Source: an uncultured Candidatus Saccharibacteria bacterium (GTDB lineage Bacteria > Patescibacteriota > WWE3 > UBA101185 > UBA10185). Taken from it: DNA of 36,002 nucleotides. The notes beneath the pieces were generated by a model. It was not told the DNA's origin. It made no database searches and saw only the letters and a list, made by a program, of their open reading frames with translations. Made by a program: the position numbers and the translations under genes. The DNA lies in contig CAZMKN010000003.1 in assembly GCA_964567095.1 (NCBI GenBank), positions 3,996 to 39,997 of the forward strand, read 5' to 3'. Shown here in pieces: positions 6,174 to 35,805 of this stretch (the stretch's first letter is position 1; each line of letters opens with the position of its first letter).

Positions 6174-6488
6174 ATGCCTAATACTATGTCGTCAAAAAAA
6201 GCTCTAAGGCAGTCCCGCCGCAAGAGGTCTCATAATTTATTTTGGAAGAATCGTGTGAAAATCGTTGTAAAGGATCTGAAAGATTCCTTGCAGACTAAGG
6301 GCGCGACTCTTGATATACTGAAGAAGAAGGAAAGCCTTCTTCAGAAGTATTTGGACAAAGCAGCTAAAGAAAAAGTAATAGCCAAAAATAAAGCTAATCG
6401 TTTAAAATCAAAATATGCCAAAAGAATTACTGCCTATCTCGCAACTTCGAAAAAAACTAGGAAACCTGTTCCGAAAGCTAAAAAGTAA
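6174..6488 (+). CDS. rpsT: 30S ribosomal protein S20 with a short basic C-terminal tail
   Basis: The start SSKKALRQSRRKRSHNLFWKNRVK and the end NKANRLKSKYAKRITAYL match the S20 start and end. An extra tail, ATSKKTRKPVPKAKK, follows. Confidence 0.85.
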   Translation: MPNTMSSKKALRQSRRKRSHNLFWKNRVKIVVKDLKDSLQTKGATLDILKKKESLLQKYLDKAAKEKVIAKNKANRLKSKYAKRITAYLATSKKTRKPVPKAKK

Positions 6489-7080
6489 AACGCTTCCGAA
6501 AGACACCAACCCCGAATTTGAAATTTCTGGAGCCAGCCTTTTACCTAGTTATAAACTTGAACCTACACTGTCGTTTGGTAAAGAACTTAATTTCAAAACC
6601 GTAAGTAATTATTATAAATCTTCCAATTTTATTCCATTTGCTCAGGCCGCTATTATTTTACTCACGTCTGTTTTTATAGTTGTTTCCTTGCTGAACGTGC
6701 TTATTAATTCGAAAATTAAAAAACAAGGGATTTTGCAGTCCGAGAATATTTCTTATCTAGAGAATGAACTAAAATCTTTGGAGAATCTAACAAAAATTTC
6801 AAAAAAAATAGAGCTTTTTAAAAGGTACAAAGCAGATTCCAAGAAATTAACTCCTTACGCTAATTTGCTTACGAATTCCGAGGGTCTTAGTTTCGAAAAC
6901 TTCAGTTTAAATCCCACCGAAGCTTCCTTTGCCGGGACTACAGCTTCTCCAACTACATTTTCATTACTAGTTGCAAAGTACCTTCAGAGTGACCTGGTTG
7001 ACAGTGTAGTTTTGCAAGCGGCTTCTCTAAATACTAATAAAAATATTTATGAACTTCAGGTAAACTTAAAACTAAAATGA
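6415..7080 (+). CDS. PilN-like bitopic membrane protein (pilus or secretion assembly-platform component, tentative)
   Basis: The cytoplasmic N-terminus contains SLLPSYK (compare the PilN INLLP motif). A single TM (AAIILLTSVFIVVSLLNVLI) and a coiled coil follow. The C-terminal alpha/beta region (FENFSLNPTEASFAGTTASP..VLQAASL....YELQVNLKL) resembles PilN. The only in-frame ATG/GTG/TTG start overlaps rpsT by 74 nt. Confidence 0.4.
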   Translation: MPKELLPISQLRKKLGNLFRKLKSKTLPKDTNPEFEISGASLLPSYKLEPTLSFGKELNFKTVSNYYKSSNFIPFAQAAIILLTSVFIVVSLLNVLINSKIKKQGILQSENISYLENELKSLENLTKISKKIELFKRYKADSKKLTPYANLLTNSEGLSFENFSLNPTEASFAGTTASPTTFSLLVAKYLQSDLVDSVVLQAASLNTNKNIYELQVNLKLK

Positions 7081-7631
7081 GAAAAAAGTTAGTTACATAT
7101 AACGCGTTTCACGACTTTTACGCCCTAATTCTCTTTTTAAATATTTTTGGTCTAGGTGTTTTTGGTATATATCCTGCAACAATCTCTTTAGTAAAAAAAC
7201 CGAATTTTTTGGCCGAGTTTAAGACAAAGAACGAGGAACTCTCATCTTTGCTGGTTAAAGCTCAGGAGGAGGCTCAAATTCAAGAACAGCTTCAGCCCTA
7301 TCTACCGGCCCTGAACGCCATAATACCCGATGATATTTATGGAGATCGGGTTGTCGCTGAGTTGTTGGTGCTTACGGCCAAAGAGGGTTACACATTGGAG
7401 GACGTTTCTTTTTCACTAGGGGGCGAAAATTTTTCGATCGTTCACTTTTCTGCGGAAGGATCGTTCGAAGAGTTAGGAAAACTTTTGGTAGCGATTGAAG
7501 ACTCAAAATTAAGTATGGAAATAACCGAGATTAGTATGAGTTTCTCGAAGCAAGATACAAAACACTTACCGAGAATTTCCGTTGACCTGAATGTATATAG
7601 TTTGAGGGAGCCCATCAATGAAGAAGAGTAA
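7077..7631 (+). CDS. PilO-like bitopic membrane protein (tentative; a VirB8/PrgL-like role is not excluded)
   Basis: It overlaps the previous gene through an ATGA start/stop. It has an N-terminal TM (YALILFLNIFGLGVFGIY), a coiled coil (NEELSSLLVKAQEEAQIQEQLQ) and an alpha/beta domain of about 90 aa. Confidence 0.35.
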   Translation: MRKKLVTYNAFHDFYALILFLNIFGLGVFGIYPATISLVKKPNFLAEFKTKNEELSSLLVKAQEEAQIQEQLQPYLPALNAIIPDDIYGDRVVAELLVLTAKEGYTLEDVSFSLGGENFSIVHFSAEGSFEELGKLLVAIEDSKLSMEITEISMSFSKQDTKHLPRISVDLNVYSLREPINEEE

Positions 7632-7821
7632 ATTTATAATACTTGGTATTTTTACGTTTATAACTTTAGCAAATCTTTTTCTGATTTTTTCCCTTAGGGA
7701 TGCTAATTCCGCAAATAATCTCACTTTTTCTCGAAAAACACTTGATTTTAATAGGGAATTTAGTGTTACAATAGATTTAGATTTTTTAAGGAATAATTTA
7801 AAACCTGCCTATGAACAATAG
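7618..7821 (+). CDS. Small single-pass membrane protein (hypothetical)
   Basis: A Shine-Dalgarno-like GAGGGA lies 8 nt upstream of the ATG. The N-terminal TM is FIILGIFTFITLANLFLIF. It overlaps both neighbouring genes. Confidence 0.4.
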   Translation: MKKSKFIILGIFTFITLANLFLIFSLRDANSANNLTFSRKTLDFNREFSVTIDLDFLRNNLKPAYEQ

Positions 7822-8305
7822 CTATCAAGCACAAAAAGGCTTCAAGACTTTCCTAGTTACCTTGGTTATCTCACTCGGAATCTTTATTGCGGTTTACTAT
7901 GTAACTTCTTATCCCTCTTACAAAATTAATATCGAAGAGTCTACTGGTGGAGAGCTGTTGGGTCGAACGGCTGTTGGGGAAACTGAGTTGGCTATTTCCC
8001 CTGTTAGCGAAGAGAAAAGCCCATTTCGACAGTTGAACGATACAGAGATGGCTGTTTCTAAGAGAGTGGTGTTGGCCGGTTCTGACGAGAATATTGTGCC
8101 TGAGGTGCCTACCGTGCCTGCTGAAACCGCGCCGATAGGTATACCTTCAGATATCCCCGAGAGTACTGTTCCGGATACCGGCTCGTTTGCTGTGACCGTT
8201 TCCTTATTTTCTTCTCTTTGTATGTTGGGTGCTGGCCTGTACTACGTGTATTTAGGCCCCCGTAAATTGGCTTTGAAGTCTTTTGAAGATCGCTTTCTTA
8301 GTTAA
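7811..8305 (+). CDS. Putative sortase substrate, a surface protein with a VPDTG sorting-signal-like C-terminus
   Basis: The C-terminus has VPDTG (nt 8168-8182), then a 25-aa hydrophobic segment (SFAVTVSLFSSLCMLGAGLYYVYLG), then a basic tail (PRKLALK). The N-terminus QKGFKTFLVTLVISLGIFIAV loosely resembles a prepilin leader plus hydrophobic helix. The central region is Pro/Glu/Thr-rich. Confidence 0.55.
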   Translation: MNNSYQAQKGFKTFLVTLVISLGIFIAVYYVTSYPSYKINIEESTGGELLGRTAVGETELAISPVSEEKSPFRQLNDTEMAVSKRVVLAGSDENIVPEVPTVPAETAPIGIPSDIPESTVPDTGSFAVTVSLFSSLCMLGAGLYYVYLGPRKLALKSFEDRFLS

Positions 8306-9014
8306 TTTTGACAGCATGGACTAATAGTCTTTTCAACTTTGTTCCAGGAGGTATACAGGTCATTAGCGTTACTGTTGACTCATTTAGAAATGTTGGTTTA
8401 GTTTCTTCTAGGGGATTTACCTCCGCCGGGTATAATGTTTCTTTATTTTCCACTAGATAAGTGAATTTATGATTTTTGGACTCTACAATAATCTCATCTC
8501 CTATTTCTAGTTTTTCAAGTGTGGAAAAGATTGTCTTATAATTCTTAGGGTTGAAGAACCACGGTAATACTGAATGCCCGTATATAAAACTATTTCCCGG
8601 CTGTCCTGGAAGCGCTGATCCCGCATAATGCCCCAGTGAATTTTTCGGATCCATTGAAGTGGAATTTACTTCTACTACTGCCTTTTCAATGTCAAGCTTG
8701 GGTATTGTGAGATAAAATCTGTCTATATTTTCGGCTACTTTTGTTTCTCCATTTTCGCTTGATAACTCTTCAAACTCAAAGTCCTTAAATCCGCTCATTA
8801 CACCCAAAACACTAGACTCCATAATAGTAGCACTCGACTTTTTGGTCGATTTAAAAAAGGCCAGTGGTAATATAACCTGTGTTCCTAAGATTAAAGTCCC
8901 ACCCAAGATCAATGTTAAAGGTAATATCCGGCTTTTCACCAAGAACTTTCCGCTTCTCACTCTATATATAGGATCGTGAGATTCATCTTTTATGTATATC
9001 TTTTTGGAGTCCAT
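8298..9014 (-). CDS. Sortase family transpeptidase
   Basis: It has an N-terminal TM anchor. Catalytic-triad contexts are present: FIYGHS (His), TLMTCIPPG (TLxTC Cys) and KRLLVHA (Arg). It converges on the VPDTG gene with an 8-nt overlap. Confidence 0.8.
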   Translation of the reverse strand: MDSKKIYIKDESHDPIYRVRSGKFLVKSRILPLTLILGGTLILGTQVILPLAFFKSTKKSSATIMESSVLGVMSGFKDFEFEELSSENGETKVAENIDRFYLTIPKLDIEKAVVEVNSTSMDPKNSLGHYAGSALPGQPGNSFIYGHSVLPWFFNPKNYKTIFSTLEKLEIGDEIIVESKNHKFTYLVENKETLYPAEVNPLEETKPTFLNESTVTLMTCIPPGTKLKRLLVHAVKIN

Positions 9015-9015
9015 T

Positions 9016-9720
9016 TTAATCTCTTTTTTTGGTTATTTTTTCTATAGTCAATACATTTATTATGTTTTCGGATATCAGCCCCAATTTTAGGTCTCTATCC
9101 GTTTTATAAAAGTGCTCATAGAGTTCCACGATTTGTTTTCCGGTAAATTCCTTTGCCTGGAGTCTGGCCTTATTTTTGACGAAAGGGGAGGCTGAGAAAT
9201 TTGCCCCAAATTTAATTTTAGCTATATTTCTTAGTTGGTATAAAAGCATCGAGTGTATTTTAAAGGCCGGTTCCCCCTTTTCTTCCAGTTTTTTAAGTGA
9301 TTGATAGGCCTTTTTCTTATTTTTAGTATAAACTGTATCCAAAAAGTTAAATACCATAAAATCCTTTTTCTCTCTCAGCTTTATCAGTTCAGCATCTTTT
9401 ATTGTCGCAATATTTTTAAGGATTTTACTGTTTGCTCGATACGTTTTGCTCGTCTTGAAAACTAAATGGGTATCTTTTGGTAACCCGCCGATATTTTCTA
9501 AAATCTTAATAAGAGTTTTATCTGTGGTAGAGCCGACTTCGACAAGGAATAAGTTTTTAAACCCAAATATGCTTGGCGTTGTGACTTTGCTCGCAAATTC
9601 TGCCAACGTTAACTCGGTTAAATTTATTTCTATTTTTTCTTGTGGGTTTATTTTTTTAACGATCTCCGCAACCTTCCTTTGTTCCGAAAGGTCGTTTTGC
9701 CCGTATATGAAATAAATCAT
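9016..9720 (-). CDS. holA: DNA polymerase III delta subunit-like protein (short form)
   Basis: Matching features: the start MIYFIYGQNDLSEQ, the loop TPSIFGFKNLFLVEV (compare pSlF...rlv.v), and a helical C-half with FNFLDTVYTKNKKKAYQSLKKLEEKGEPAFKIHSMLLYQLRNI. At 234 aa it is shorter than typical HolA. Confidence 0.55.
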   Translation of the reverse strand: MIYFIYGQNDLSEQRKVAEIVKKINPQEKIEINLTELTLAEFASKVTTPSIFGFKNLFLVEVGSTTDKTLIKILENIGGLPKDTHLVFKTSKTYRANSKILKNIATIKDAELIKLREKKDFMVFNFLDTVYTKNKKKAYQSLKKLEEKGEPAFKIHSMLLYQLRNIAKIKFGANFSASPFVKNKARLQAKEFTGKQIVELYEHFYKTDRDLKLGLISENIINVLTIEKITKKRD

Positions 9721-11912
9721 TGGTTTTCCGGGATTTTATTAAGGTCTATACTTCCTGAGGACTCATCTCTTTGTGGCTGTATTGTATTCATCTGGTCAAT
9801 AATAGTTGTCTCTATTTGTTTTGGTACCCAGGTTTTAGGTTTCTGTGCGTTGGTTTCTTCCCCCCGGTTTACCACGTGTGTTTTTGATTTTTCGATTTGG
9901 GCTAATCGCTCCTCATTCTCAGATGGTTTCTCCTCTCTTTGGGGCGGCATAGGTTCCTTTTGTTCTGCAGCGTTTTGAGTTTTAGGCGCATGTCCCTCCT
10001 TTACGTTTCCTTCCTTGTCGAAGGTGCTATATTTGTCGGGCTCGACGTGTTTGAAGGGCTCATATTTAGGTTTCGCCATAGGCTTTTCTTTTTCTTGGAT
10101 GATCCCTTCTTTTCTAAGTTTCAATAATTCCTTAGGATCTGTGGTTATTAGTTTATGCTCCTCAGAAGAGGCCTTAATCCTTATAGCTACATGATTAGTT
10201 CCCGCAAAAAAGAGCCCCTCCCCTATTCCGGCACCTAGTAGTAATCTTTTCTCTCCCTCGGATAGATAGAAGGTTTCCGCAACAAGCTCAATCGCGGCAG
10301 GATGTTGTTTTAATAGTATTTGTATGGATGAATTTGTGACTATGGCCTTTCCATATTCTGATTTCAAAAAGTCATCTACATCCTGCGAAATTGTGGTTAA
10401 TCCTAGATAGTACTTTCTGGCCCTTTTCGCAATCCCATAAATAAATCTTGCACTGTCTTCGTTTTCCATGAGATACCAAGCTTCTTCGACTATAAGTACC
10501 CTTTTTTTTAGGTCTCTTCGAATGGTTGTCCAAACGAAATCTAATATTATGTAAAAAGCTATTGGTCTGAGAAGATCTTCCAAGTTTTTGGTAGAGAAAA
10601 CGGTCATATTGTTATTTATATCTACTGTCGTTTGTGAATCAAAAATCCCCGCCAAGGATCCTCTCACATACTTTTCCAATCTTCCAGCCATATTGTGCGC
10701 CTCTTGCTCAGCCGCTCCTAGCAGGACTTTGTATAAATCTTCCATTACAGGCGGTTCCTTAGCCATTTGCGTGTCAGGATCTGTTGTAATTCCTTTTAAT
10801 CTGTACGTTTCGATCAGAGCTCTGTCTAAAACAGCTTCTTCTGTTGGAGACAATTCTCCCATCATCAGTTTTAGAAGCGTATGAAGTGAAAGTACCTTCT
10901 GCCCAAGCTCATTCGCACCCTCCATAGCTATTCCGGATAGATCGAATGGGTTAATTTTACCTGTTGAGCTTGCTGAAAAGTCTATGTAATTTCCGCCTAC
11001 CGCATCACATAATGTCCTGTATTCCTCTTCAGGATCGATTATCATCACTTGGGCTCCGAATATCATTAATCGTAAGGCCTCAAGTTTTACGAAGTAGGAT
11101 TTACCGGCACCTGATTTAGCAAAGACCACTGAATTAGCGTTTTCTAGTGAAAACCTATCGAAAATTATAAGGGAGCCGTTATGGCGATTGATCCCATACA
11201 TTATTCCCTCGTCCATTGTTAATTCAGACGAAGTGAATGGAAACGTTGTGGCTAGGCTGGTAGTGTCCATGTTTCTCGTAATGAGAAGTTTGTCCATTCC
11301 CGTGGGTACAGTGGATTGAAAGGCTTCTTCCATCTGAAGAGTTGCTGTCTTAGATATTAGTAGCAAAGAGCCTAAGGTCGACTCCAGTTTGGAAGTTACA
11401 TTATTCAGTTCTTCCAAGGAATTTGCAGGAATCGTTATGTAAAAAGAAAATTGAAAGTATTTTTCCACACCCTTTACGAGTTGTTCCTGTAATGTGTTGG
11501 CATCCTCCAGAGCTACTTTAACTGCTGGATCTGTTATTTTTCCTTTTTCCCTGTCTGACATTGTTGTTGCCTCTAGCTCGGTAATTTTTCTGCGCAAATC
11601 GTCCAAAATCATTTTTGCTTTTACCGGGTAGTAAAACATAGACATGTCAATTGTGTGCTCGAAGTTGATTACCGGCGCTAACCAATTAGCGCCTACAAAT
11701 CGCGGGTACCCCGATATGAAAAGAGTTCTGTAGTATGAGTTTCCAATTTTTATATGATTAAAATCTACTTCCAGAGCAGAGGGTGCGATGATATCTTTTA
11801 TGTCTATCATTCCTTTGGACAAAGTTTCCGCGGGATTATTGACCGACTCTTGCGTTGGGTTTTTCTGATTTTCCTCTTTTCCTGTTTTTTTCGTGATAAA
11901 TGGTAGGTTCAT
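9717..11912 (-). CDS. VirB4/TrbE/PrgJ-like type IV secretion ATPase (AAA_10/DUF87-type) with a disordered C-terminal tail
   Basis: Motifs found: Walker A FAKSGAGKSYFVK, Walker B RVLIVEEAWYLM (the DEAW-type box of VirB4), and TTISQDVDDF. The N-terminal domain (IDIKDIIAPSALEVDFNHIKIGNSYYRTLFISGYP) is typical of Gram-positive VirB4 homologues. GAGGAG lies 8 nt upstream of the ATG. Confidence 0.8.
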   Translation of the reverse strand: MNLPFITKKTGKEENQKNPTQESVNNPAETLSKGMIDIKDIIAPSALEVDFNHIKIGNSYYRTLFISGYPRFVGANWLAPVINFEHTIDMSMFYYPVKAKMILDDLRRKITELEATTMSDREKGKITDPAVKVALEDANTLQEQLVKGVEKYFQFSFYITIPANSLEELNNVTSKLESTLGSLLLISKTATLQMEEAFQSTVPTGMDKLLITRNMDTTSLATTFPFTSSELTMDEGIMYGINRHNGSLIIFDRFSLENANSVVFAKSGAGKSYFVKLEALRLMIFGAQVMIIDPEEEYRTLCDAVGGNYIDFSASSTGKINPFDLSGIAMEGANELGQKVLSLHTLLKLMMGELSPTEEAVLDRALIETYRLKGITTDPDTQMAKEPPVMEDLYKVLLGAAEQEAHNMAGRLEKYVRGSLAGIFDSQTTVDINNNMTVFSTKNLEDLLRPIAFYIILDFVWTTIRRDLKKRVLIVEEAWYLMENEDSARFIYGIAKRARKYYLGLTTISQDVDDFLKSEYGKAIVTNSSIQILLKQHPAAIELVAETFYLSEGEKRLLLGAGIGEGLFFAGTNHVAIRIKASSEEHKLITTDPKELLKLRKEGIIQEKEKPMAKPKYEPFKHVEPDKYSTFDKEGNVKEGHAPKTQNAAEQKEPMPPQREEKPSENEERLAQIEKSKTHVVNRGEETNAQKPKTWVPKQIETTIIDQMNTIQPQRDESSGSIDLNKIPENQ

Positions 11913-11917
11913 TTGCG

Positions 11918-12616
11918 TTACTCCTCAAAAATGGCTGGATTTACTATGGCCGTTTGATAATCTTCCACTTTAGTCTGAATCCTTTGTCCGTGCACGGCGC
12001 TCGGGTTATAAATATCGAAATACAACTCCACAAGTTCTTGCGTATTTAATTGTTCAGCTTTTATTCCCAATCGTCTAAATTCCTTTTTAATATGAGCTGT
12101 TTTTGGTTCCAGCTCTATTTTTGCATTTTTAAGTGCTTTTTGTACATTTACGTTTACCCTTTTGGTATTGGTTCCTAGTAAACGCGTAAGAAACTCAAAG
12201 GGATTGGATATAGATTCTTTACTGATAGCCGTATTTGTGGATAGTATGACGTAAAATTTTTTGTCTAGAACTTCATTTGTTGTAATGGTTTCCTGGACGA
12301 ATTTTCTATAAGCTTCCGCTTGATGTTTGAGAAGTGGGTCCTCTATCTTATTTTCCACTTGAATTACTTTTTGCAGGTAGCTGGAAATATCTAGTTTTTT
12401 GGAGCGTAGAACTATTTGAAGTGGAAACGTTATTGAATTGATTAACATTGAAAACGCCGCAATAATAGCATCTTGCTCAATCTCTGAAAGTAGATCAAAA
12501 TTAACCGCAGTTGTTTTTAACACAGCAGCAGCAGCGCCATTTTTTAGGATAACCAGGTTTTCCTTTATGTCCTCGATGTCTAAATGTTGTTGTGTTGTGG
12601 CAGTAATTCTTGACAT
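11918..12616 (-). CDS. Hypothetical soluble protein of the VirB4 module (resembles a stand-alone VirB4 N-terminal domain)
   Basis: It lies 3 nt downstream of the PrgI-like gene and 5 nt upstream of the VirB4-like gene. The pattern HLDIEDIKENLVILKNGAAAAVLKTTAVNFDLLSEIEQDAIIAAFSMLINSITFPLQIVLRS parallels the N-terminal region of VirB4-family ATPases. There is no Walker motif and no TM. Confidence 0.5.
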   Translation of the reverse strand: MSRITATTQQHLDIEDIKENLVILKNGAAAAVLKTTAVNFDLLSEIEQDAIIAAFSMLINSITFPLQIVLRSKKLDISSYLQKVIQVENKIEDPLLKHQAEAYRKFVQETITTNEVLDKKFYVILSTNTAISKESISNPFEFLTRLLGTNTKRVNVNVQKALKNAKIELEPKTAHIKKEFRRLGIKAEQLNTQELVELYFDIYNPSAVHGQRIQTKVEDYQTAIVNPAIFEE

Positions 12617-12619
12617 TTT

Positions 12620-13966
12620 TTAACGACCTATAATCTCAAATGAGGGCAAAAGCCCGCCCTTTATTTCAAGAGGAATTATATCAAAGGCTAGGTTCGTTTG
12701 TTTAGCTCCATCTACCTCTAATTTATATTTTCCGTTTGCTAAAGGTGTCGAAACGAGAAATCTCCCGACTTTATCTGTTTTTAAGGCTCTTATAGGCTCT
12801 CCTTTCTCATTTTTTATTACAATTACCACTCCTTGGATATGTTCGCCCCTACGGTTTTTTATCATCCCCGATACTATATTTGGTCTTTTCACCATGGAAG
12901 GTATTTGCCGCACGCTTAATTTCTTTTCCATTTCTTTTTCTCTCTGAGTTTGACTCAGAAGTTTTCGCATCTTCTTGTTTTTTTCCTCGATGGTTCTGTC
13001 ATCCTCTCTCGAGATCTGTATCACTTTTTCACCTCTTATGGGCAGCACGATCCGTCCTTGGTTTAGAGTTAAGTTAACGAACTTACGCCCTGAGTGTTGC
13101 ATTAGAGGTCGTAGAGGAATTATTCCTCGCGATTTTCCCTCATCTAAGGGTTTCATTTTCGATTTTTTTATTTTGGCTTCGACGATTTTATTTATTTTCG
13201 TTTGCCTAGCAATTGCTGCCGTTTCCCTCTCACTTTTTTCTAGCTCCTTTTTCTTTGCTTTCTTGTGTTGTTCTTCAGAGGTTGTATCTTGTGTTTGTAT
13301 TGGTTTTTTCCCCCCGACCATGTCTTCTTTCTTTCCCGCTTCCTTTGTTGGTCTTGTCAATTTTTCCCGGGTTTCCAAAGAGGGTTGCGCACTTTGAATT
13401 GCGGTGCCTTTCGCGGGTGTTACAGTAGTAGGTTGGGCTCTTTGGGCTACCGTTCTTTCCTCCGTTTTAAATGCTTCTCGTACCATAGCTATATAGGCTT
13501 CTTCGGGAATATCCAAAGGGTCTTTTTTTTCTGTACGTCCTCGTTGATCCAGATACTCTTCTAATTTCCTTCTGCTAGCTGTTGGTGCAAGTGTTATCAA
13601 TTCCTGTTGTACAAAATGTAGACTTTGTTCGTAAGCCAGCCCTACAGGAATTCTCCACTCCTTTTTCCAGATTCTTTCTGTGGGTATATTTATGGCCTTA
13701 AGGAAGTTTATGACCCACTCATCTAACCCTCTATCTTCATAAGGAACGAATGCAAAACCGAGTCCTGTTAGTCCTAGCCCTATAACAAAGAACCACGTGA
13801 AGGGTTGTGGAACTGAGAGCTTAGCCATGTATGCTGCTATTGCAAAAACTAGGACGTACACGAATTGTCTCATCGTAAGTTCTCCTATGAGTTTGAATTC
13901 CACATCCATTATGTTTTGAGGGACGGCATGTTGCTTGTTGGTTAGCGGTTGATTTTGGGCGGGCAT
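12620..13966 (-). CDS. PrgI/VirB3-like membrane protein with a long charged extension and a C-terminal beta-sandwich domain
   Basis: The N-terminus VPQNIMDVEFKLIGELTMRQFVYVLVFAIAAYM plus a second TM (FTWFFVIGLGLTGLGFAFV) matches the PrgI-family pattern (vP.di...e.k..g.lT.RQ). About 250 aa of K/E/T-rich low-complexity sequence follows. The end, IVSGMIKNRRGEHIQGVVIVIKNEKGEPIRALKTDKVGRFLVSTPLANGKYKLEV, looks like a carboxypeptidase-regulatory-like domain. Confidence 0.6.
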   Translation of the reverse strand: MPAQNQPLTNKQHAVPQNIMDVEFKLIGELTMRQFVYVLVFAIAAYMAKLSVPQPFTWFFVIGLGLTGLGFAFVPYEDRGLDEWVINFLKAINIPTERIWKKEWRIPVGLAYEQSLHFVQQELITLAPTASRRKLEEYLDQRGRTEKKDPLDIPEEAYIAMVREAFKTEERTVAQRAQPTTVTPAKGTAIQSAQPSLETREKLTRPTKEAGKKEDMVGGKKPIQTQDTTSEEQHKKAKKKELEKSERETAAIARQTKINKIVEAKIKKSKMKPLDEGKSRGIIPLRPLMQHSGRKFVNLTLNQGRIVLPIRGEKVIQISREDDRTIEEKNKKMRKLLSQTQREKEMEKKLSVRQIPSMVKRPNIVSGMIKNRRGEHIQGVVIVIKNEKGEPIRALKTDKVGRFLVSTPLANGKYKLEVDGAKQTNLAFDIIPLEIKGGLLPSFEIIGR

Positions 13967-13973
13967 TGTTTAA

Positions 13974-13979
13974 ATTATA
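13974..13979 (-). promoter_or_regulatory. Candidate -10 box (TATAAT) immediately upstream of the PrgI-like gene
   Basis: The minus strand reads TTGCGTATAATTTAAACA-ATG. A perfect TATAAT ends 7 nt before the A of the ATG (13966). No convincing -35 is present, and the genome is AT-rich, so a chance match is possible. Confidence 0.3.
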
Positions 13980-13988
13980 CGCAAGTTT

Positions 13989-15236
13989 TTATTTTATTTC
14001 TTCGATTATCTCACTCATCTTTTTTAAGGTAGTTTCGTTTTCGCTTCGTAATTTAAGTTCTATCTTATCTCCAGTTTTTTTCGAGATCACGAGCCTATAT
14101 GGAATTCCTATTAAATCTGTATCTGCAAATTTTTCCCCCGCTCCCACGTCGGTTCTATTGTCAAATAAAACCTCTATGTTTTCCCTTTCAAGTCGTTCAT
14201 AAACTTTTTTTGCCTTTTCTTCAACAACTGGATCTTCCAGATTTAATCCCACTAAATGTGCACGGAATGGCGCTATGTTTTTTGGCCAAATAATGCCGTT
14301 TTTGTCCGAGTTAATTTCCACAACCGTGCCCAAGCACCTTCCAAGTCCTATGCCGTAACTGCCCATTATAACAGGTTTTTGCTCACCAGTTTTATCTGTA
14401 TATAGTAATTCTAAAGGTTCTGAAAATCTTGTTTTTAACTTAAAAATGTTTCCAACCTCTATTGCCCTTACTATTTCCAACTTGCTCTCTTCCAACCCCA
14501 AATCCCTTAATACCTCCTCGGTACGAACATCCTCGTTGACAGCTAGCCTTTTCTCCCTGTCTAAATAAATAACGTCTTCTCCTGTCTCACAGATTGTTTG
14601 AAACTCATGACTATATTTCGAAAAGGCGCCCCCACTCGAGAAAGTAAGAAAAGTTTTCTCTCCCAGACCCAATCTGTTAAAAATATTAAAGTACGCTTGT
14701 TTTACCTTTTCATAAAAGATATTTAGAGCTTCCTCATCTTTATTAAATGAGTAAAGGTCTTTCATCACAAATTCTCTGGTTCTGAGTATCCCTCCTTTTG
14801 ATCGTAGTTCGTTCCTGAATTTTGTTTGAAATTGGAACAAATACTTAGGTAGATCTTTATATGAATGGATGAATTGTTTCGCCAATTTTGTTAGCGGTTC
14901 TTCATGAGTCGTTGCTAAACCTACTTCCGTTTCATTTTTAAGTTTAGTTTTAAACCACACGTCTAATACCTCGTCATTCCACCTATCGGTTTTTTTCCAT
15001 ACCTCCGGATTTTGCAAGCTTCCCATAAGTAACTCTTGTCCACCAATTGCTTCCATTTCCTTTCTTATAATCTGGAGTATTTTGTCTAGGACACGTTTCC
15101 CCAAAGGGAGATATGTATAAACTCCCGCCATTTCTTTGTGTATAAACCCCGCTTGAATTAAGAGTTGTGCGCTCTTACATATTTCATCCGCGGGAGGCTC
15201 TCTTCTAGTTTTTAGTAAAAGTTTGGTATAAAGCAT
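13989..15236 (-). CDS. proS: Prolyl-tRNA synthetase, a short bacterial-type form without the INS editing domain
   Basis: The start is MLYTKLLLKTRREPPADEICKSAQLLIQAGFIHKEMAGVYTYLPLG. Class II motif 2 is FRNELRSKGGILRTREFVMKDLYSF. SHEF..GEDVIY and EVGNIFKLKTRFSE are also present. Motif 3 is GSYGIGLGRCLG. A C-terminal anticodon-binding domain follows. Confidence 0.9.
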   Translation of the reverse strand: MLYTKLLLKTRREPPADEICKSAQLLIQAGFIHKEMAGVYTYLPLGKRVLDKILQIIRKEMEAIGGQELLMGSLQNPEVWKKTDRWNDEVLDVWFKTKLKNETEVGLATTHEEPLTKLAKQFIHSYKDLPKYLFQFQTKFRNELRSKGGILRTREFVMKDLYSFNKDEEALNIFYEKVKQAYFNIFNRLGLGEKTFLTFSSGGAFSKYSHEFQTICETGEDVIYLDREKRLAVNEDVRTEEVLRDLGLEESKLEIVRAIEVGNIFKLKTRFSEPLELLYTDKTGEQKPVIMGSYGIGLGRCLGTVVEINSDKNGIIWPKNIAPFRAHLVGLNLEDPVVEEKAKKVYERLERENIEVLFDNRTDVGAGEKFADTDLIGIPYRLVISKKTGDKIELKLRSENETTLKKMSEIIEEIK

Positions 15237-15365: not shown

Positions 15366-15824
15366 TCACCCTTCCTCTTCATGTTCTTTGTCACTTTCGC
15401 CAATATATTCTAGCACTAGTGGTTCCCCTCCCATAATTTCCGGATTCTCAAAGACGTTCCCGACTACTGTTATACTTCTAAGTGAGCGTTTGTCCGCAAA
15501 GTCTATGGTTTTCTTGTTACCCAAGAATTTAAGTCCAAACTTAGCACTTTCCGTGTTCCAATAAACCAAGCCAAGTTTCCCTTGAGCCCCAACCTTTAAT
15601 ATGTCCCCATCCCATATATCTATATCCTCATCGTCTTTTAGACCGATAAATTGCATCACTATAATATTTTCATCGCACTCTTCGCTCACATACCAGTCTC
15701 GGCCCTTCTTTTTAGGCGTACCTCTAGAGTACAAAACCTTCCCACTTAACCCTATAGCAACGTTTTTGTACATATAGTTTTTTACTTTGTGCCACGCTCT
15801 AAATTTATATTGATGATTTACCAT
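15366..15824 (-). CDS. YopX family protein (phage/prophage-associated family)
   Basis: Three stretches match the characteristic YopX blocks: YKFRAWHKVKNYMY, MQFIGLKDDEDIDIWDGDIL and VVGNVFENPEIMGG. An acidic tail follows. Confidence 0.75.
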   Translation of the reverse strand: MVNHQYKFRAWHKVKNYMYKNVAIGLSGKVLYSRGTPKKKGRDWYVSEECDENIIVMQFIGLKDDEDIDIWDGDILKVGAQGKLGLVYWNTESAKFGLKFLGNKKTIDFADKRSLRSITVVGNVFENPEIMGGEPLVLEYIGESDKEHEEEG

Positions 15825-16242: not shown

Positions 16243-16309
16243 CTATGGGAATTTTAACATTAAGTTCTGATGATTTATTTCCCGGACTTAATAATTTCTT
16301 AATCTTTTT

Positions 16310-21976: not shown

Positions 21977-23809
21977 ATGCTTTTAAGCTCCAAGGAAATC
22001 ATTCAAAAGTTTGTAGATTTTTACAAAGATAAGGGTCACGCTGAAATCCCAAATGTTTCTTTAGTGCCGGAAAATGATTCTACCCTACTTTTTGTTAACG
22101 CCGGAATGTTTCCAATGGTTCCTTATTTGATGGGGGAACCTCATCCAATGGGCACCAGACTTGTAAATGTTCAACGGTGTCTTCGGCTTGAGGATATTGA
22201 GGAAGTGGGCGACAACCGCCACACTACAGCTTTTCACATGCTGGGAAATTGGAGTTTAGATGATTATTTTAAGAAGGATCAGCTGAGTTGGATCTATGAA
22301 TTTTTGTTTGACATTTTGAAATTGGATCCGCGAAGAATTTATTCTACAGTTTTTGGAGGTAGTAAGGATGTTCCTAGGGATGAAGTTTCAGCTGAAATCT
22401 TAGAGTCTCTGTTTTCTGCGAGAGGGATTAAATCTAAATTGGGAGAACGAGTTTTTTACTGTTCTGACAATTGGTGGATGCGTGGTGACGGCGTTGGTGA
22501 GTTAGGGGGCCCTGATAGCGAGATTTTCTACTACATAGGCGACGATTTGGAAAACTTCGGTTTGGGACAGAGCTTAGAAGAAAATGAGGACGCTTTTATT
22601 GAAATAGGTAACTCGGTCTTTATGCAGTATGTTCGGACAGAGAGTGGGTGGGAACAGATGGACAAGAAGAACGTTGATTTTGGAGGAGGACTAGAGAGAC
22701 TGGCGCTGGCTGTACAATCCAAGCCGGATATTTTTGAGACAGACAATTTTTGGCCCATTATTCAAAAGCTGGAAGTTTTAACGGGTTTAAAATACGGCCA
22801 GGTTAAGGAAGCAACAAGAAACATGCGAATCATAGCCGATCACATTCGTTCAGGCGTGTTTTTGGCCATGGATGGTGTCGTTCCATCCAATAAGGACCAA
22901 GGGTATGTACTGCGTCGCTTGTTGCGCAGAATAGTAAGAGCTGGAAAGAGTTTGGGGTTAAAAGGAGATATTTCATCTGAGCTCGTTTCCGTTGTTGCGG
23001 AGCTATTTAATTGGCTGTATCCGGATTTGGCGGAGAAGCGAGCTGGTATCGAGAAGATTTTTTCTGAAGAGGAATCAGTGTTTAGAAAAACTTTGATAAA
23101 GTCCTCGAAAGAAGTTGAAAAGTTTTTGAAAACTCTAGATCCGGAAGAAGTAAATGCTAAGGATTTGTCTGAAAAAGCTTTTAATTTCTATCAATCCTTA
23201 GGTTATCCGGAGGAGATTTTCCTCGAAGATTTGAGGGAGTTTGGGTTTGATATCCATACTTCCGCTTTTGCCGAAGAATTTAAAAAGCTACAGTCCGAGC
23301 ATAAAGAAAAATCTCGTCAGGGAGCCGATAAAAAATTTAAGGGAGGTTTATCTTCTCAAGATGAAATTAACACCAAGTATCATACTGCTACACATCTTTT
23401 ACACTCAGCTCTAAGAAAAGTTCTGGGAGCAGGTGTTTATCAGCAGGGGAGTAACGTCACTAAAGAGAGATTGCGTTTTGATTTCTCTTTCAATAGAGTG
23501 CTGACTGATGAAGAAGTTGAAGAGGTTGAAGATTTTATTAATGCCCAAATAGAGAAAGATTTCCCTGTTAAGTTTGAAATTTTGGATAGGGAAGATGCCC
23601 TAAAAATCGACGCTTTGCATTTTTTTGATGAGAAATATGATGAGAAAGTAAAGATTTATTATGTGGGCGATAGTTTGGACTCTGCTTTTAGCAAAGAGTT
23701 TTGCGGCGGGCCTCATGTTGGAAATACTTCGGAGCTGAGCCCGCTAGAGATTTATAGACAGAAAAAGATTGGACAGAAAACCGTGAGAATTTACGCCAGG
23801 TTTATCTAA
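21977..23809 (+). CDS. alaS: Alanyl-tRNA synthetase, a short form lacking the C-Ala domain
   Basis: The N-terminal catalytic core is FVNAGMFPMVPYLMG and VNVQRCLR..D...VG...HTTAFHMLGNWS. The editing-domain motifs HTATHLLHSAL and CGGPHV are present. The protein ends about 35 aa after CGGPHV. Confidence 0.9.
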   Translation: MLLSSKEIIQKFVDFYKDKGHAEIPNVSLVPENDSTLLFVNAGMFPMVPYLMGEPHPMGTRLVNVQRCLRLEDIEEVGDNRHTTAFHMLGNWSLDDYFKKDQLSWIYEFLFDILKLDPRRIYSTVFGGSKDVPRDEVSAEILESLFSARGIKSKLGERVFYCSDNWWMRGDGVGELGGPDSEIFYYIGDDLENFGLGQSLEENEDAFIEIGNSVFMQYVRTESGWEQMDKKNVDFGGGLERLALAVQSKPDIFETDNFWPIIQKLEVLTGLKYGQVKEATRNMRIIADHIRSGVFLAMDGVVPSNKDQGYVLRRLLRRIVRAGKSLGLKGDISSELVSVVAELFNWLYPDLAEKRAGIEKIFSEEESVFRKTLIKSSKEVEKFLKTLDPEEVNAKDLSEKAFNFYQSLGYPEEIFLEDLREFGFDIHTSAFAEEFKKLQSEHKEKSRQGADKKFKGGLSSQDEINTKYHTATHLLHSALRKVLGAGVYQQGSNVTKERLRFDFSFNRVLTDEEVEEVEDFINAQIEKDFPVKFEILDREDALKIDALHFFDEKYDEKVKIYYVGDSLDSAFSKEFCGGPHVGNTSELSPLEIYRQKKIGQKTVRIYARFI

Positions 23810-23840
23810 GGTCACTCTGGTATGCAACCTACACATCGGC

Positions 23841-23867
23841 TTGACACTCGTTCGTATAGAGTGCTAT
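23841..23867. promoter_or_regulatory. CIRCE operator (HrcA binding site)
   Basis: TTGACACTC-GTTCGTATA-GAGTGCTAT compares well with the consensus TTAGCACTC-N9-GAGTGCTAA. The N9 spacing is correct, the CACTC/GAGTG core is perfect, and the position in front of groES is canonical. Confidence 0.7.
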
Positions 23868-23870
23868 AAA
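23841..23870 (+). promoter_or_regulatory. Sigma-70-type promoter of groES-groEL
   Basis: TTGACA (23841-23846) and TATAAA (23865-23870) are separated by an 18-nt spacer. The promoter lies about 48 nt upstream of the groES ATG. The groES RBS AAGGAGG is at 23906-23912. Confidence 0.5.
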
Positions 23871-23917
23871 TTTACTCGCATTAGTAATTATTTTTTGAGT
23901 TCCCAAAGGAGGAGAAA

Positions 23918-24211
23918 ATGAAAAAAATTAAACCTTTATTTGACTATTTGCTTATAGAGCCGTTGGAGAAAGAAACCACACTTCCATCCGGTATAGTTAT
24001 TCCTGATTCCGCAAAGGAAAAACCACAAGAAGGAAAAATTGTAGCTTCCGGTCCCGGCGTGAAGGACAAAAACGGAAAGCTTATTCCCATGGAAGTATCC
24101 GTTGACGACGTAGTTGTGTATAAAAAGTGGGGAGGCACAGAAATCAAAGTAGATGGAAAAGATTACATATTAGTTAAGCAAGAGGACTTGCTAGCTGTAG
24201 TTAAGGAATAA
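23918..24211 (+). CDS. groES: Co-chaperonin GroES
   Basis: It is 97 aa. IKPLFDYLLIEPLE...LPSGIVIPDSAKEKPQEGKIVASGPG...VVYKKWGGTEIKVDGKDYILVKQEDLLAVV is a textbook Cpn10 sequence. Confidence 0.95.
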   Translation: MKKIKPLFDYLLIEPLEKETTLPSGIVIPDSAKEKPQEGKIVASGPGVKDKNGKLIPMEVSVDDVVVYKKWGGTEIKVDGKDYILVKQEDLLAVVKE

Positions 24212-24232
24212 TTATTTTAAAAGGAGATTATT

Positions 24233-25891
24233 ATGGCAAAGAATATTATTTATGATGAAGAAGCACGAAAAAAGCTCAAAAGCGGTATCGATAAGTTAGC
24301 GAAAGCTGTTGTTACTACTCTTGGCCCAAAAGGACGAAATGTATCTATGGCGAAAAGCTGGGGCACTCCTCAAGTAGTTCATGATGGCGTCACTGTGGCG
24401 AAAGAAATAGAGCTCGCAGACCCATTTGAAAACATGGGAGCCCAATTAGTGAAAGAGGCTGCTACTAAAACCAATGATGTGGCAGGAGACGGTACTACTA
24501 CAGCTATTTTGTTGGCTCAGGCTATAGTTGAGGAAGGTCTGAAGAATGTATCGGCAGGTGCTAATCCCATGATTTTAAGAAAAGGTCTAGAGATGGCCGC
24601 AGAAAAAACTGTGGCGGAGATAAAGAAATTATCCGCAGAAATTTCTACAAAGGAAGAAAGGGCTCAGGTAGCAACAATTTCTGCACAAAGTGAGGAAATT
24701 GGGAGCATCATTTCCGAGGCAATGGAAAAAGTTGGTGAGAATGGCGTTCTAACTGTTGGTGAGTCTAAAGGATTGGAAATGGAGTTAGAGTATAAGGAAG
24801 GTATGCAGTTTGATAAGGGGTATTCCTCACCTTACTTTGTAACTGATCCAGAAAAGATGGTTGCAGAAATAGAGGATCCATATATTTTGGTTACAGACTC
24901 AAAAATATCCAGTATTCAGGAGCTACTTCCAATGTTGGAAAACTTGGTTAAGGTATCGAAAAATTTGGTAATAATAAGTCAAGGCATTGACGGCGAGGCT
25001 TTAGCCACTTTGGTTGTAAACAAGCTAAGAGGTACATTTAATGCTCTGGCGTTGGAAGTTCCCGGGTTTGGTGATCGCAAAAAAGCTATTTTAGAAGACA
25101 TAGCGGTTTTGACCAGCGCCACTTTAATTAGTGGGGATACAGGGAGAGAGTTGGCTTCTGTAACAGTGGATGATTTAGGAAAGGCCGAAAAGGTTATCTC
25201 AACGAAAGATAATTCCACAATAGTTGGAGGACAGGGGGCTAAGGAAAAGATTGACGCCCGTGTGGATCAGATTAAAGCTCAAATGGAGCAATCCACTTCC
25301 GACTATGACAAAGATAAATTAAAAGAGAGAATGGCCAAATTGTCAGGCGGTGTAGCCGTTATTAATGTTGGTGCAGCCACAGAAACAGAGCTTAAAGAGA
25401 AGAAATTACGTGTGGAGGACGCTGTAAATGCTACTAAAGCCGCTGTAGAGGAGGGTATCGTTCCAGGAGGTGGTGTGGCATTTTACAGGGCTCGCGAAGT
25501 TATAAAGGATCTCAAGCTTGAGGGAGATGCCTCAACCGGTACTAGTATTTTATATTCTGCTTTAGATCGTCCGATTAGGCGTTTAATTGAGAATGCAGGT
25601 AAAGATGCGGGAGAGGTTCTCGCCGGAATGACACACTTTGCGAAGAGCTCGGATTATAAGGGTAAGAAGGGAAATGTTGGATTTAATGTAATGTCTTTAG
25701 AATATAGTGACATGATTAAAGACGGCATTATAGATCCTACAAAAGTGGTAAGGGTAGCCCTCCAGAACGCTGTTTCCGTAGCTATTATGGTTCTTACAAC
25801 TGACTGTTTGATCGCGGATGAGCCAAAGAAGGACGCTCCTGCTGGTGGAATGCCGGCTGGGGGAATGGGCGGAATGCCGGGAATGATGTAA
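24233..25891 (+). CDS. groEL: Chaperonin GroEL
   Basis: [35 protein letters not shown] and a C-terminal GGM repeat are all present. The RBS AAGGAG is at 24221-24226. Confidence 0.97.
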
Positions 25892-25924
25892 AAGGTTTTC
25901 GTTCCACTAACTTGGTTAAATATG

Positions 25925-25950
25925 AAAGGCCCTGAATTCTCAGGGCCTTT
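25925..25950 (+). terminator. Stem-loop terminator after groEL, possibly bidirectional
   Basis: AAAGGCCCTGA-attc-TCAGGGCCTTT forms an 11-bp perfect stem that ends in TTT. It sits in the convergent gap between groEL and the 26056..26904 gene. Confidence 0.6.
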
Positions 25951-26055
25951 ATGGTTCGTTATATTTCACAGATAATCCTTATTATTTTTTAGATTTGACT
26001 GTAATTTTCTTATCCTCTATTATCCCAGCGGTGTAAGTGCCAATTGTCAATAGTT

Positions 26056-26904
26056 TCATGTTCTTTTAGTCAAGTTTTCTTTGTACTTTATTAAGATTTC
26101 CTCGGTTTTATCATTCTTGTTAAAGTGTATAAGTTTAGGTGTAACTTTTTCGCTGACAATTTTCTTCCCCATATACTTTTTTTGTGCCCAATACACAGCT
26201 TTTTCTAATAGATCTAAAACCTTTGGATTAGACCCCTGAAAATTTTCTATTTTTTCGAACTCAAAATTTGGAAAGAAATTTTCGCACCATTTATTTGCAG
26301 TCAAAAATCTCCAGTAAGTTTTTTCACGGTTAATTATTGGTTGCATCCGCACAATTTCTGAGGCAATGTAAAGGTTTTGTTTTTTCCTTTCCCACAACAT
26401 ATTATCCTCAGCTATGAGCAGGTTTGGACAGACTTTATCTACGGAGTTTTTATCTGTGCGATATTTCCCCAAAGACTTTAAGTACAGGACGATGAATAGT
26501 CGCGTTAGCCAAAGCCGTTTTTTCTGGGCCACAACAAAAACATCTACATCTCCTTTTTCCTGTGGATTAGAGGCTGCTAAGGGCCCTGTTAAAGCCAGTA
26601 ACTTTATCCACGGGATTTTCTCCAAACGTTTTATAATATCTCTAGCTTGTTCTGTTTTTCTTGCCGTTTCTTTGAGCTTTTCGGGCCAATTCTCCGCGTA
26701 TTTTTGTGCGACGCAATATTTCCCCGCCTTTTGTGAAATTATCCTGCGTTTCTCCAATTCCCTTAAAGCTTTAACTAAATCCTTATATGAGCACCTACAT
26801 CCTAAGTAGGTACCTAGCTGATAAAAACTTAGCGGATATTTGAAGACCTCGGAATAAGCTAGAGTCTTAAGGACCTCGTTTTTTAGCTTTTTTGGTGAAG
26901 ACAT
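26056..26904 (-). CDS. Hypothetical protein with an N-terminal winged-helix-like region and a nucleotidyltransferase-fold-like core
   Basis: LLALTGPLAASNPQEKGDVDVFVV resembles the minimal-NTase G[SP]..(n)..D.D motif. The N-terminal sequence YKDLVKALRELEKRRIISQKAGKYCV looks like a wHTH. The assignment is weak. Confidence 0.4.
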   Translation of the reverse strand: MSSPKKLKNEVLKTLAYSEVFKYPLSFYQLGTYLGCRCSYKDLVKALRELEKRRIISQKAGKYCVAQKYAENWPEKLKETARKTEQARDIIKRLEKIPWIKLLALTGPLAASNPQEKGDVDVFVVAQKKRLWLTRLFIVLYLKSLGKYRTDKNSVDKVCPNLLIAEDNMLWERKKQNLYIASEIVRMQPIINREKTYWRFLTANKWCENFFPNFEFEKIENFQGSNPKVLDLLEKAVYWAQKKYMGKKIVSEKVTPKLIHFNKNDKTEEILIKYKENLTKRT

Positions 26905-26909
26905 ACCTT

Positions 26910-27335
26910 TTATGAATTGCAGTTGTCTAATACCTCGTTTACTAAACTATCTGCCTTTTTATTTTTCTCTCTAGGAACGTGCCTGTAATTTACCATTTCA
27001 AATTCCTTTTCCAACACTTTAATTTCCTCAAAAAATACCTTTAGACGCTCATTTTTCACTTTATACACGCCGTTTAATTGTTTAACAATTAATTCGCTGT
27101 CTAAAAAGCACATTAGGTTTTTTGCTCCAGACTTTATTGCCGTTTTTAAACCGATCGTTAAAGCTCTATATTCCGCTTCGTTATTAGTTCCTTTTCCTAG
27201 ATAAACTCCAATTTCTTTTATGAATGATTTATCCGACGTGTACAAAAATATTCCGGCAGCCGAAGGTCCAGGATTACCTCTAGCCCCGCCGTCCGTAAAA
27301 AGCACGAAATTTGTATCTAAATCTTTTTTATCCAT
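26910..27335 (-). CDS. rnhA: Ribonuclease HI
   Basis: The DEDD residues sit in canonical contexts: LFTDGGARGNPGPSAAG, NNEAEYRAL, LDSELIVKQ and NKKADSLVN. Confidence 0.8.
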   Translation of the reverse strand: MDKKDLDTNFVLFTDGGARGNPGPSAAGIFLYTSDKSFIKEIGVYLGKGTNNEAEYRALTIGLKTAIKSGAKNLMCFLDSELIVKQLNGVYKVKNERLKVFFEEIKVLEKEFEMVNYRHVPREKNKKADSLVNEVLDNCNS

Positions 27336-27948: not shown

Positions 27949-28008
27949 AAAGGCATTATATCGAATAATTTTTTGTTATATACTGATAACAGTTTAGAAA
28001 CTGCCCAT

Positions 28009-35797: not shown

Positions 35798-35805
35798 ATT
35801 GCATA

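Follow-up and report, generated by a model that had tools for sequence, protein, structure and literature searches.

The 36-kb stretch of DNA analysed here (contig CAZMKN010000003.1), i.e., the window to which all coordinates refer, comes from a bacterium of the WWE3 class and carries three consecutive genes, prgI, a trsD-like gene and virB4. These very probably encode the inner-membrane energising core of a non-conjugative type IV secretion system (T4SS) of the Patescibacteria type, derived from the MPF-FATA conjugation machinery of monoderm bacteria. A preliminary description of the window, made from the sequence alone, had reported three co-directional genes with gaps of 3 and 5 nt that encode a PrgI/VirB3-like protein, a 232-aa protein and a VirB4-type ATPase with the motifs GAGKS and VEEAW. 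Coordinates, strand, spacing, Pfam and NCBIfam matches and motif positions all agree with this. The features of the triad are as follows.

13974-13979, minus strand: TATAAT -10-like box, 7 nt before the prgI ATG, within the 22-nt proS-prgI gap
12620-13966, minus strand: prgI/virB3-like gene, 448 aa, PF12666; 3 nt to the trsD-like gene
12629-12913, minus strand: CnaB/transthyretin-like (CarboxypepD_reg-like) beta-sandwich at the PrgI C-terminus, aa 352-446, ~90 aa
11918-12616, minus strand: trsD-like gene, 232 aa, VirB4 N-terminal segment; 5 nt to virB4
9717-11912, minus strand: virB4, 731 aa, NF045971; 4-nt ATGA overlap with holA
11097-11111, minus strand: Walker A motif GAGKS, VirB4 aa 268-272
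10476-10490, minus strand: Walker B region VEEAW, VirB4 aa 475-479

The 731-aa protein scores 373.5 bits with the NCBIfam model NF045971 (VirB4-like conjugal transfer ATPase, CD1110 family), whose curated cut-off is 325, and in Pfam it matches P-loop_TraG (6.9e-27), AAA_10 (8.6e-12) and the DUF87/HerA central domain (32.7 bits). Competing models score far lower, e.g., CedB at 39.9 and TcpF at 26.6 bits. The C-terminal domain of the Thermoanaerobacter VirB4 (PDB 4ag5) is the sole solved structure matched by sequence, with an E-value of 1.6e-53. Judged by these profile matches, the protein is a true VirB4, the signature ATPase of T4SSs. It comprises the remaining VirB4 N-domain, a RecA-like ATPase domain and a 140-aa tail rich in E, K, P and Q. 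Orthologues at 70-92% identity are abundant in metagenome-assembled genomes (MAGs) of ‘candidate division WWE3’ and Patescibacteria. The best 120 database matches and the 80 loci obtained in a genome scan, onto which the window genes were mapped by tblastn (loci of relatives are labelled L001-L081), all belong to Patescibacteria/WWE3, although some of the MAGs are mislabelled. The low-complexity tail (aa 592-731; 9717-10139, minus strand) matches no model, and orthologues range from ~600 to ~950 aa, differing chiefly through this C-terminal tail.

The trsD-like and virB4 genes are, from their profile alignments, complementary parts that tile one full-length VirB4. The 232-aa protein covers positions 104-280 of the NCBIfam profile VirB4_plasma (E 9.4e-11) and the 731-aa protein covers positions 283-893, and the latter aligns with the CD1110 profile solely from position 177 onward. 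When an AlphaFold2 model of the 232-aa protein was compared with the PDB using Foldseek, the top 14 chains were all TrwK/VirB4 of R388 (E 3e-4 to 1.6e-2, probability 0.94-1.0), the following match, at E 0.49, being noise. A search of the TrsD profile against PDB sequences returned noise only. The possibility that TrsD duplicates the N-terminus of the 731-aa protein was rejected, as hhalign of the ortholog profiles (first 260 residues) gave a probability of 0.06%. Because the profile ranges are adjacent, the fold matches are to TrwK/VirB4 only and mutual similarity is lacking, we regard the two genes as complementary and not as duplicates. The match to the TrsD model NF041427 is weak (E 2.6e-6; 27.4 bits against a cut-off of 200), and the protein is thus best described as a homologue of the VirB4 N-terminal segment that falls outside the curated staphylococcal TrsD subfamily. 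The preliminary description had the gene and its length right, but left it as an unassigned soluble protein, whereas it is TrsD, a VirB4 N-terminal piece. A survey of Patescibacteria T4SSs describes TrsD as remotely homologous to the VirB4 N-terminus, consistent with the split seen here (PMC12102498, Quinonero-Coronel et al. 2025). The CD1110-family VirB4 of Clostridioides difficile CTn2 and the Thermoanaerobacter VirB4 (4ag5) provide the best family model and the best solved structure for the ATPase; both are single full-length proteins, whereas in the window the 731-aa protein is missing the first ~176 profile positions, which come from TrsD as a gene of its own.

The 448-aa protein matches PrgI PF12666 over aa 15-91 at 35.6 bits (cut-off 27), and its AlphaFold2 model contains a two-helix membrane hairpin with transmembrane (TM) helices at 32-51 and 57-73. 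Lys/Arg residues cluster ahead of helix 1 and behind helix 2, not in the short loop between them. Because of this distribution, and because VirB3-VirB4 fusions are known in other systems (PMC12102498), both termini, including the C-terminal domain, are predicted to be cytoplasmic; if the topology were unconventional, the C-terminal extension could instead form a surface-exposed stalk. The hairpin is followed by a linker rich in K, E, R and T, which varies in length and is disordered apart from an invariant motif, HSGRKF...LPIRGE (aa 291-313; about 13030-13096, minus strand), with invariant columns H291, G293, R294, F296 ... L308, P309, I310 and R311. The beta-sandwich at the C-terminus is modelled with a predicted local distance difference test (pLDDT) score of 84-90. 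Its match to PF13620 (E 2e-5) is below threshold, and the top Foldseek matches in the PDB are UafA, CnaB2 (8bdw, TMt 0.71), FbaB, BcpA, SdrD-B and HIU hydrolase/transthyretin.

Classical VirB3 proteins are far shorter than this 448-aa PrgI. The layout of N-domain, linker and C-domain, together with the linker motif, is common to the orthologues of WWE3 (430-650 aa), Microgenomatia (~300 aa) and Dojkabacteria (~300-370 aa), and database annotation already holds the combination of PF12666 and PF13620 under ‘PrgI family protein’. The CnaB-like domain is not mentioned in the available text of PMC12102498 and PMC10633639 on Patescibacteria T4SSs. It is conceivable, if rather doubtful, that the tail and the motif on their long tether act as a module that recruits substrates or partners to an unusually minimal core of three T4SS genes, standing in for the absent coupling protein as a receptor. 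Behind this idea is the scarcity of VirB6 and of coupling proteins in WWE3, Microgenomatia and Dojkabacteria, or their lack of linkage to virB4. A conserved extra domain on VirB3 is in any case a possible handle on the binding partners of the machine.

The order prgI-trsD-virB4 is contiguous in about 60 relatives of several classes, i.e., in essentially all loci with sufficient flank, and it is found in WWE3, in Shapiro-/Woesebacteria (Microgenomatia) and in WS6/Dojkabacteria. The gaps between the three genes are mostly 0-15 nt or short overlaps, and trsD and virB4 are also adjacent in the more distant loci L075-L080. Each of the three proteins is intact across many WWE3 genomes, at 65-92% identity. 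As such, the triad is a chromosomally fixed and vertically conserved core in a Patescibacteria-type genome, as had been proposed, the closest relatives all being WWE3/Patescibacteria.

No relaxase, type IV coupling protein (T4CP), VirB6, integrase or VirB1-type hydrolase was matched by Pfam among all window open reading frames (ORFs) of at least 100 aa. The window further contains no tRNA gene, no pilin-like small ORF in its gaps and no compositional island, its GC content being uniform and that of the locus ordinary. The features that would mark an integrative conjugative element (relaxase, coupling protein, integrase or recombinase, and an attachment or tRNA boundary) are therefore missing from the window, and relaxase, T4CP and integrase genes were not found in the 10-kb flanks of relatives. 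The preliminary description had listed a coupling protein (VirD4), relaxase, VirB6-like channel, VirB1 hydrolase, integrase, oriT-like repeat and tRNA boundary as absent from the window, and had concluded that this is not a conjugative element; both points hold. A chromosomal context in which neither a relaxase nor a T4CP lies near virB4, in the window and in the flanks of relatives alike, is that of a Patescibacteria-type T4SS core. An M23 peptidase gene (1059-2396) was considered as a substitute for VirB1 and set aside, as it adjoins ftsE/ftsX and more likely encodes a division-associated hydrolase.

The system to which the triad is assigned is better documented than the preliminary description allowed when it called such modules poorly defined (PMC10633639; PMC12857230; PMC12102498). 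VirB4 was found in 2,417 of 3,035 Patescibacteria genomes, nearly all of these VirB4s forming one monophyletic clade nested within MPF-FATA; TrsD and VirB3/PrgI are the commonest neighbours of virB4, relaxases hardly occur, and the locus frequently lies close to dnaA/dnaN (PMC12102498). Transposon sequencing in Southlakia epibionticum revealed an unusual Gram-positive-like T4SS, with coupling protein and relaxase unrecognisable, that is essential for epibiotic growth (PMC10633639, Wang et al. 2023). A 2025 review restates this picture (PMC12857230), while the function of Patescibacteria T4SSs has been described as ‘completely unknown’ (PMC11665869). The window locus resembles these systems (PMC12102498; Southlakia SEML1_0006-0019, PMC10633639) in that a VirB4 of MPF-FATA ancestry stands beside PrgI/VirB3 and TrsD on the chromosome, with relaxase and coupling protein not nearby, and in that most WWE3 relatives hold the triad next to dnaN and the origin. 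It differs from them in that, in the sub-lineage of the window, the triad lies off the origin-proximal site, between proS and holA. Furthermore, Saccharimonadia clusters hold VirB6, an array of VirB2-like pilins and a hydrolase, whereas the window locus is without them nearby.

Two better-known machines provide further comparison. The staphylococcal MPF-FATA systems of pGO1/pSK41 (TrsC-TrsD-TrsE) have the same succession of VirB3-like protein, TrsD and VirB4 ATPase; however, they are plasmid-borne and conjugative, with a relaxase, T4CP, VirB6-like protein and hydrolase, and the match of the window protein to the TrsD model is weak. The TrwM/VirB3-TrwK/VirB4 assembly of R388 (PDB 7o41, 8rtb, 8rtd) is a structural template for the docking of the ATPase hexamer at the membrane by a VirB3 hairpin together with the N-domain of VirB4, but it belongs to a diderm machine that has the complete VirB1-11 set, and its VirB3, of about 100 aa, is without the long linker or beta-sandwich. 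By analogy with VirB3-VirB4 of solved T4SSs, the PrgI/VirB3 hairpin would anchor the ATPase to the membrane, where TrsD and the 731-aa protein would together form a docked VirB4 hexamer; this hexamer would then power a conduit or pilus that spans the envelope, both while it is assembled and while it is used. From the Saccharibacteria literature, we infer that the system serves interaction with a host cell and not conjugation.

The triad also appears to carry its own promoter. In 43 of 57 related loci, a TANAAT hexamer precedes the prgI start by 5-12 nt (mostly 6-8), compared with 3/68 for trsD, 1/77 for virB4 and 2% of random positions, and it is kept regardless of which gene lies upstream. 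A -10 box this near to the start codon is an established signature of leaderless genes. The triad may thus be a separate transcription unit whose putative promoter, with its -10 box 7 nt before the prgI start, would yield a leaderless or near-leaderless mRNA. Similar boxes (TATAAT/TAAAAT) are found 6-8 nt before the starts of a Wzz-like gene (27949-27960), addA (35798-35811) and mem121 (16243-16256), each of which is the first gene of a gene run, while groES and groEL carry clear Shine-Dalgarno sequences; this suggests that leaderless transcripts could be widespread in this genome. No terminator-like hairpins occur on the minus strand from proS to the sortase gene (15236-8298), therefore read-through is possible, and holA and the sortase gene may be co-transcribed behind the triad in this lineage.

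In the window, the triad stands among the following genes.

13989-15236, minus strand: proS, class-II tRNA synthetase Pfam; 22 nt to prgI
9016-9720, minus strand: holA, DNA_pol3_delta_C 1.2e-12; 1 nt to the sortase gene
8298-9014, minus strand: sortase gene, Sortase Pfam 9.3e-26

The 22-nt gap to proS, the ATGA overlap with holA and the sortase gene 1 nt further on had been noted before, and both spacing and Pfam identities bear this out. The wider order, ubiA-RR-mem121-yopX-proS-triad-holA-srt-VPDTG-p67-p184-p221-rpsT-murJ (RR, response regulator; srt, sortase gene; VPDTG, gene of a 164-aa protein; p67, p184 and p221, three small membrane proteins), is restricted to one WWE3 sub-lineage (L001-L005, L056, L071 and L081, the last being the same strain at 99% identity), within which it is stable despite divergence of the neighbours to 30-50% identity. 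In about 27-30 further WWE3 loci, the complete genome CP006914.1 (L073) among them, the order is alaS-groEL-h282-RNaseH-Wzz-epimerase/DUF4012-triad-dnaN(-)-jag-yidC, h282 being a 282-aa protein. The window retains the block from alaS to epimerase/DUF4012 (21977-31074), followed by femAB genes where the triad stands elsewhere, and the epimerase-DUF4012/FemAB junction marks a rearrangement breakpoint. In Microgenomatia loci, dnaN-yidC-jag lie 3-5 kb downstream of virB4, and because dnaN is downstream in this class too, the dnaN- or origin-proximal site is by parsimony ancestral. Since the proS/holA/sortase context is found in a single sub-lineage and the dnaN context in most WWE3, it follows that the triad was relocated as a three-gene cassette by a local rearrangement in the window's sub-lineage, to a place between proS and holA. 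With proS as bait, 79 further metagenomic loci never showed the window's neighbours beside proS, and an ancestral, empty proS|holA junction was not found among these loci, all of which have different neighbours.

This history changes how the surroundings of the triad are to be read. The preliminary description had seen the module as ‘hard-wired’ between proS and holA/sortase, as part of one six-gene operon and as sharing an envelope-apparatus neighbourhood with the PilN/O-like genes. None of these three claims is supported as worded. The context is limited to one WWE3 sub-lineage and differs in about 27-30 WWE3 loci, the adjacency to the PilN/O-like genes is restricted in the same way, and the operon is at best a derived read-through arrangement in which the triad has its own conserved -10-like box. 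As for conserved gene order, prgI-trsD-virB4 is upheld across classes, but the full order from proS to holA and the sortase gene is confined to the one sub-lineage. The housekeeping, sortase and PilO-like genes would then be accidental neighbours, acquired when the triad left its usual origin-proximal site beside dnaN for the gap between proS and holA.

Several points weigh against our interpretation of the triad as a Patescibacteria-type T4SS core. VirB6, VirB8, a VirB1-type hydrolase, a VirB2-like pilin and T4CP are absent from the 36-kb window and from the 10-kb flanks of WWE3 relatives. The WWE3 class was probably not surveyed in PMC12102498, because NCBI taxonomy places WWE3 outside the ‘Patescibacteria group’ and the string ‘WWE’ is absent among ~2,000 rows of its genome table (Table S1) in the available part, and the best database matches and the published phylogeny are suggestive of, more than decisive for, membership of this VirB4 in the Patescibacteria/MPF-FATA clade. 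The TM-scores of the structural matches to TrsD are low (0.44), and its AlphaFold2 model has a mean pLDDT of 67. The promoter is read from a consensus hexamer in AT-rich DNA in related loci that are not independent samples, and a generic sigma-70 promoter scan of the region found sites no more numerous than in shuffles.

Of the other ways to explain the locus, one keeps the machine and has it work as an importer, so that a VirB4-driven conduit would bring in host nucleic acids or other macromolecules, as ComB and Ced do, and would serve neither effector export nor an adhesive pilus. We consider this unlikely but worth keeping in mind. Patescibacteria are without nucleotide biosynthesis, the competence machinery of Southlakia is dispensable while its T4SS is essential (PMC11665869, PMC12857230), and for a cultivated relative, feeding on host RNA and possible T4SS pili are reported in a 2026 preprint (10.64898/2026.06.21.733656). 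An importer would also fit with a coupling protein and relaxase not being nearby and with the weak general similarity to CedB (39.9 bits). However, the content of the window is silent on the direction of transport, the CedB and CedD models stay well short of their cut-offs and of the score reached by CD1110, and nuclease, DNA-binding or ComEC-like genes are not adjacent. Improbable in our estimation is the proposal that the core is functionally tied to holA and the sortase through an operon of six genes. With the PilN/O-like proteins and the VPDTG protein as sortase substrate, it would then build a composite envelope apparatus, the T4SS ATPase working together with a structure that is type IV pilus-like or anchored by sortase. 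Tight spacing and the lack of terminator-like hairpins between 15236 and 8298 speak for it, as do the persistence of the arrangement in 7 relatives whose neighbours have diverged to 30-50% identity, the truly PilO-like character of the neighbour at 7077-7631, the conserved VPDTG substrate and the cooperation of T4SSs with type IV pili known elsewhere, e.g., in R64 and Ced (PMC12102498). Yet the linkage is missing in about 30 other WWE3 loci and in all other classes sampled, proS is without these neighbours in every other lineage sampled, and sortase or PilO-like genes were not seen to recur independently beside virB4 in unrelated lineages. The triad carries its own -10 box, holA is a replication gene with no plausible secretion role, and genomes from the candidate phyla radiation (CPR) are generally dense, so that short gaps are weak evidence for a shared function.

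Two further explanations rank lower still. That the triad is what decay has left of an integrated conjugative element or plasmid, and no system adapted to its host, seems to us very improbable: VirB4, PrgI and TrsD do belong to conjugation-type families (pGO1, CD1110/CTn2), and a gene for the phage-associated YopX domain lies 1.4 kb upstream, but integrase, relaxase, T4CP, tRNA and repeat boundary are all absent from the window, the GC content is ordinary and the three intact proteins have kept their 65-92% identity across many WWE3 genomes. The triad occupies conserved chromosomal sites, and the YopX gene itself is syntenic in the sub-lineage. We give even less credence to an ATPase of the HerA/FtsK type or a defence protein like mad8 of MADS, which would be no secretion motor. 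Such a reading could appeal to the DUF87/HerA match at 32.7 bits and to the PADLOC model mad8 at 81.5 bits, but the latter is confined to the P-loop domain and the partner genes, i.e., other MADS/Dnd components, are absent, for which reason a defence system was rejected. The VirB4 model, by comparison, reaches 373.5 bits, above its curated cut-off, the PDB match to VirB4 has an E-value of 1.6e-53 and the partners PrgI and TrsD are specific to T4SSs; on these scores the ATPase is not of the HerA/FtsK kind, which the preliminary description had named as a refutation.

The T4SS type is not new, and the locus is a further example of a system described in papers of 2023-2025. Its contribution is to extend the published picture of Patescibacteria T4SSs to the WWE3 class, which is a modest addition, and to add small new points, namely the tiling of VirB4 by two genes, the cassette-like relocation, the leaderless-type -10 box and the CnaB/transthyretin-like domain of VirB3. 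The genes prgI, trsD and virB4 emerge as a self-contained cassette that is mobile within the chromosome, apparently with its own promoter. Well-described examples are of value given that the T4SS was essential for epibiotic growth in the single species tested.

The rest of the window holds ordinary chromosomal genes of a small-genome bacterium, as seen in Pfam scans. Those concerned with cell envelope and division include ftsE/ftsX, the M23 peptidase gene, murJ, genes for UbiA and Wzy and two FemAB genes; the remainder includes rpsT, a response regulator gene, alaS, groES/groEL, genes for RNase H and an epimerase-DUF4012 fusion, and addA. The fusion protein (1033 aa; 27973-31074, plus strand, TTG start) has an NAD-dependent epimerase domain. 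As the upstream neighbour of the triad in other WWE3 it was considered as VirB6, and rejected because of this identity. In Microgenomatia, a ~650-aa (646-aa) membrane protein is encoded directly after virB4 and before dnaN (L043:12599-14539; L047, L053, L066, L070, L072). It has a Gly/Ala-rich membrane segment and an NlpC/P60-like hydrolase end at the C-terminus, making it a candidate VirB1-type cell-wall hydrolase; no such protein is found in the WWE3 loci or the window, which leaves WWE3 more pared down at this locus than its sister class.

Three small single-pass membrane proteins, p221, p184 and p67, are encoded after rpsT at 6415-7821 on the plus strand. For p184 (7077-7631), a search of 1.84 billion proteins returned 18 homologues, eight of which match PF04350 PilO (best 1.5e-11) and ten T2SSM_b, and the family profile matches the Myxococcus PilO PDB 3jc8 with an E-value of 4.7e-5; by this transitive homology, p184 is probably PilO/GspM-like. 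For p221 (6415-7080), no match that would assign it to PilN came from NCBIfam, from a profile search of the PDB or from hhalign against the PilO-like family. The earlier label of a PilN/O-like pair therefore keeps its PilO-like half, while p221 is PilN-like through architecture and position only. The annotated start of p221 overlaps rpsT by 74 nt and the true start is uncertain; p67 occupies 7618-7821 (plus strand), and pilM, pilB and pilC are not found nearby. The 164-aa protein encoded at 7811-8305 (plus strand) ends in a C-terminal sorting signal made up of VPDTG, a hydrophobic helix and GPRK-LAL-SFED. Motif and tail are conserved in five relatives (L001-L004, L056), and its gene is convergent with the sortase gene, overlapping it by 8 nt. 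The two form a dedicated sortase-substrate pair in a CPR bacterium. Together, the PilO-like and sortase genes point to type IV pilus and sortase biology; a functional link to the T4SS triad is not supported, because their adjacency to it is confined to one sub-lineage.

Upstream of proS, a YopX-domain gene (15366-15824, minus strand; PF09643 2.4e-18) lies between proS and the gene of a small protein with four TM helices. It is syntenic in L001, L002, L005 and L071, which marks it as a stable chromosomal gene and not a recent prophage fragment. Among the MAGs that supplied loci, several titled ‘uncultured Gammaproteobacteria bacterium’ or ‘Candidatus Saccharibacteria’ (L045-L047, L049-L052, L054, L055, L070, L072) have a gene content that is clearly Microgenomatia- or WWE3-like, and the record-level taxonomy of these bins looks unreliable. 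The 282-aa protein (26056-26904, minus strand) has no family match, an N-terminal region like a winged helix-turn-helix and a GDVDVFVV motif. In most WWE3 loci its gene is no more than 5 kb upstream of prgI, and a homologue with 25-35% identity is found directly upstream of prgI in Dojkabacteria/WS6 (L060-L062, L064, L065, L068, at about 7400-7600), making this family a recurrent neighbour of the triad across classes.

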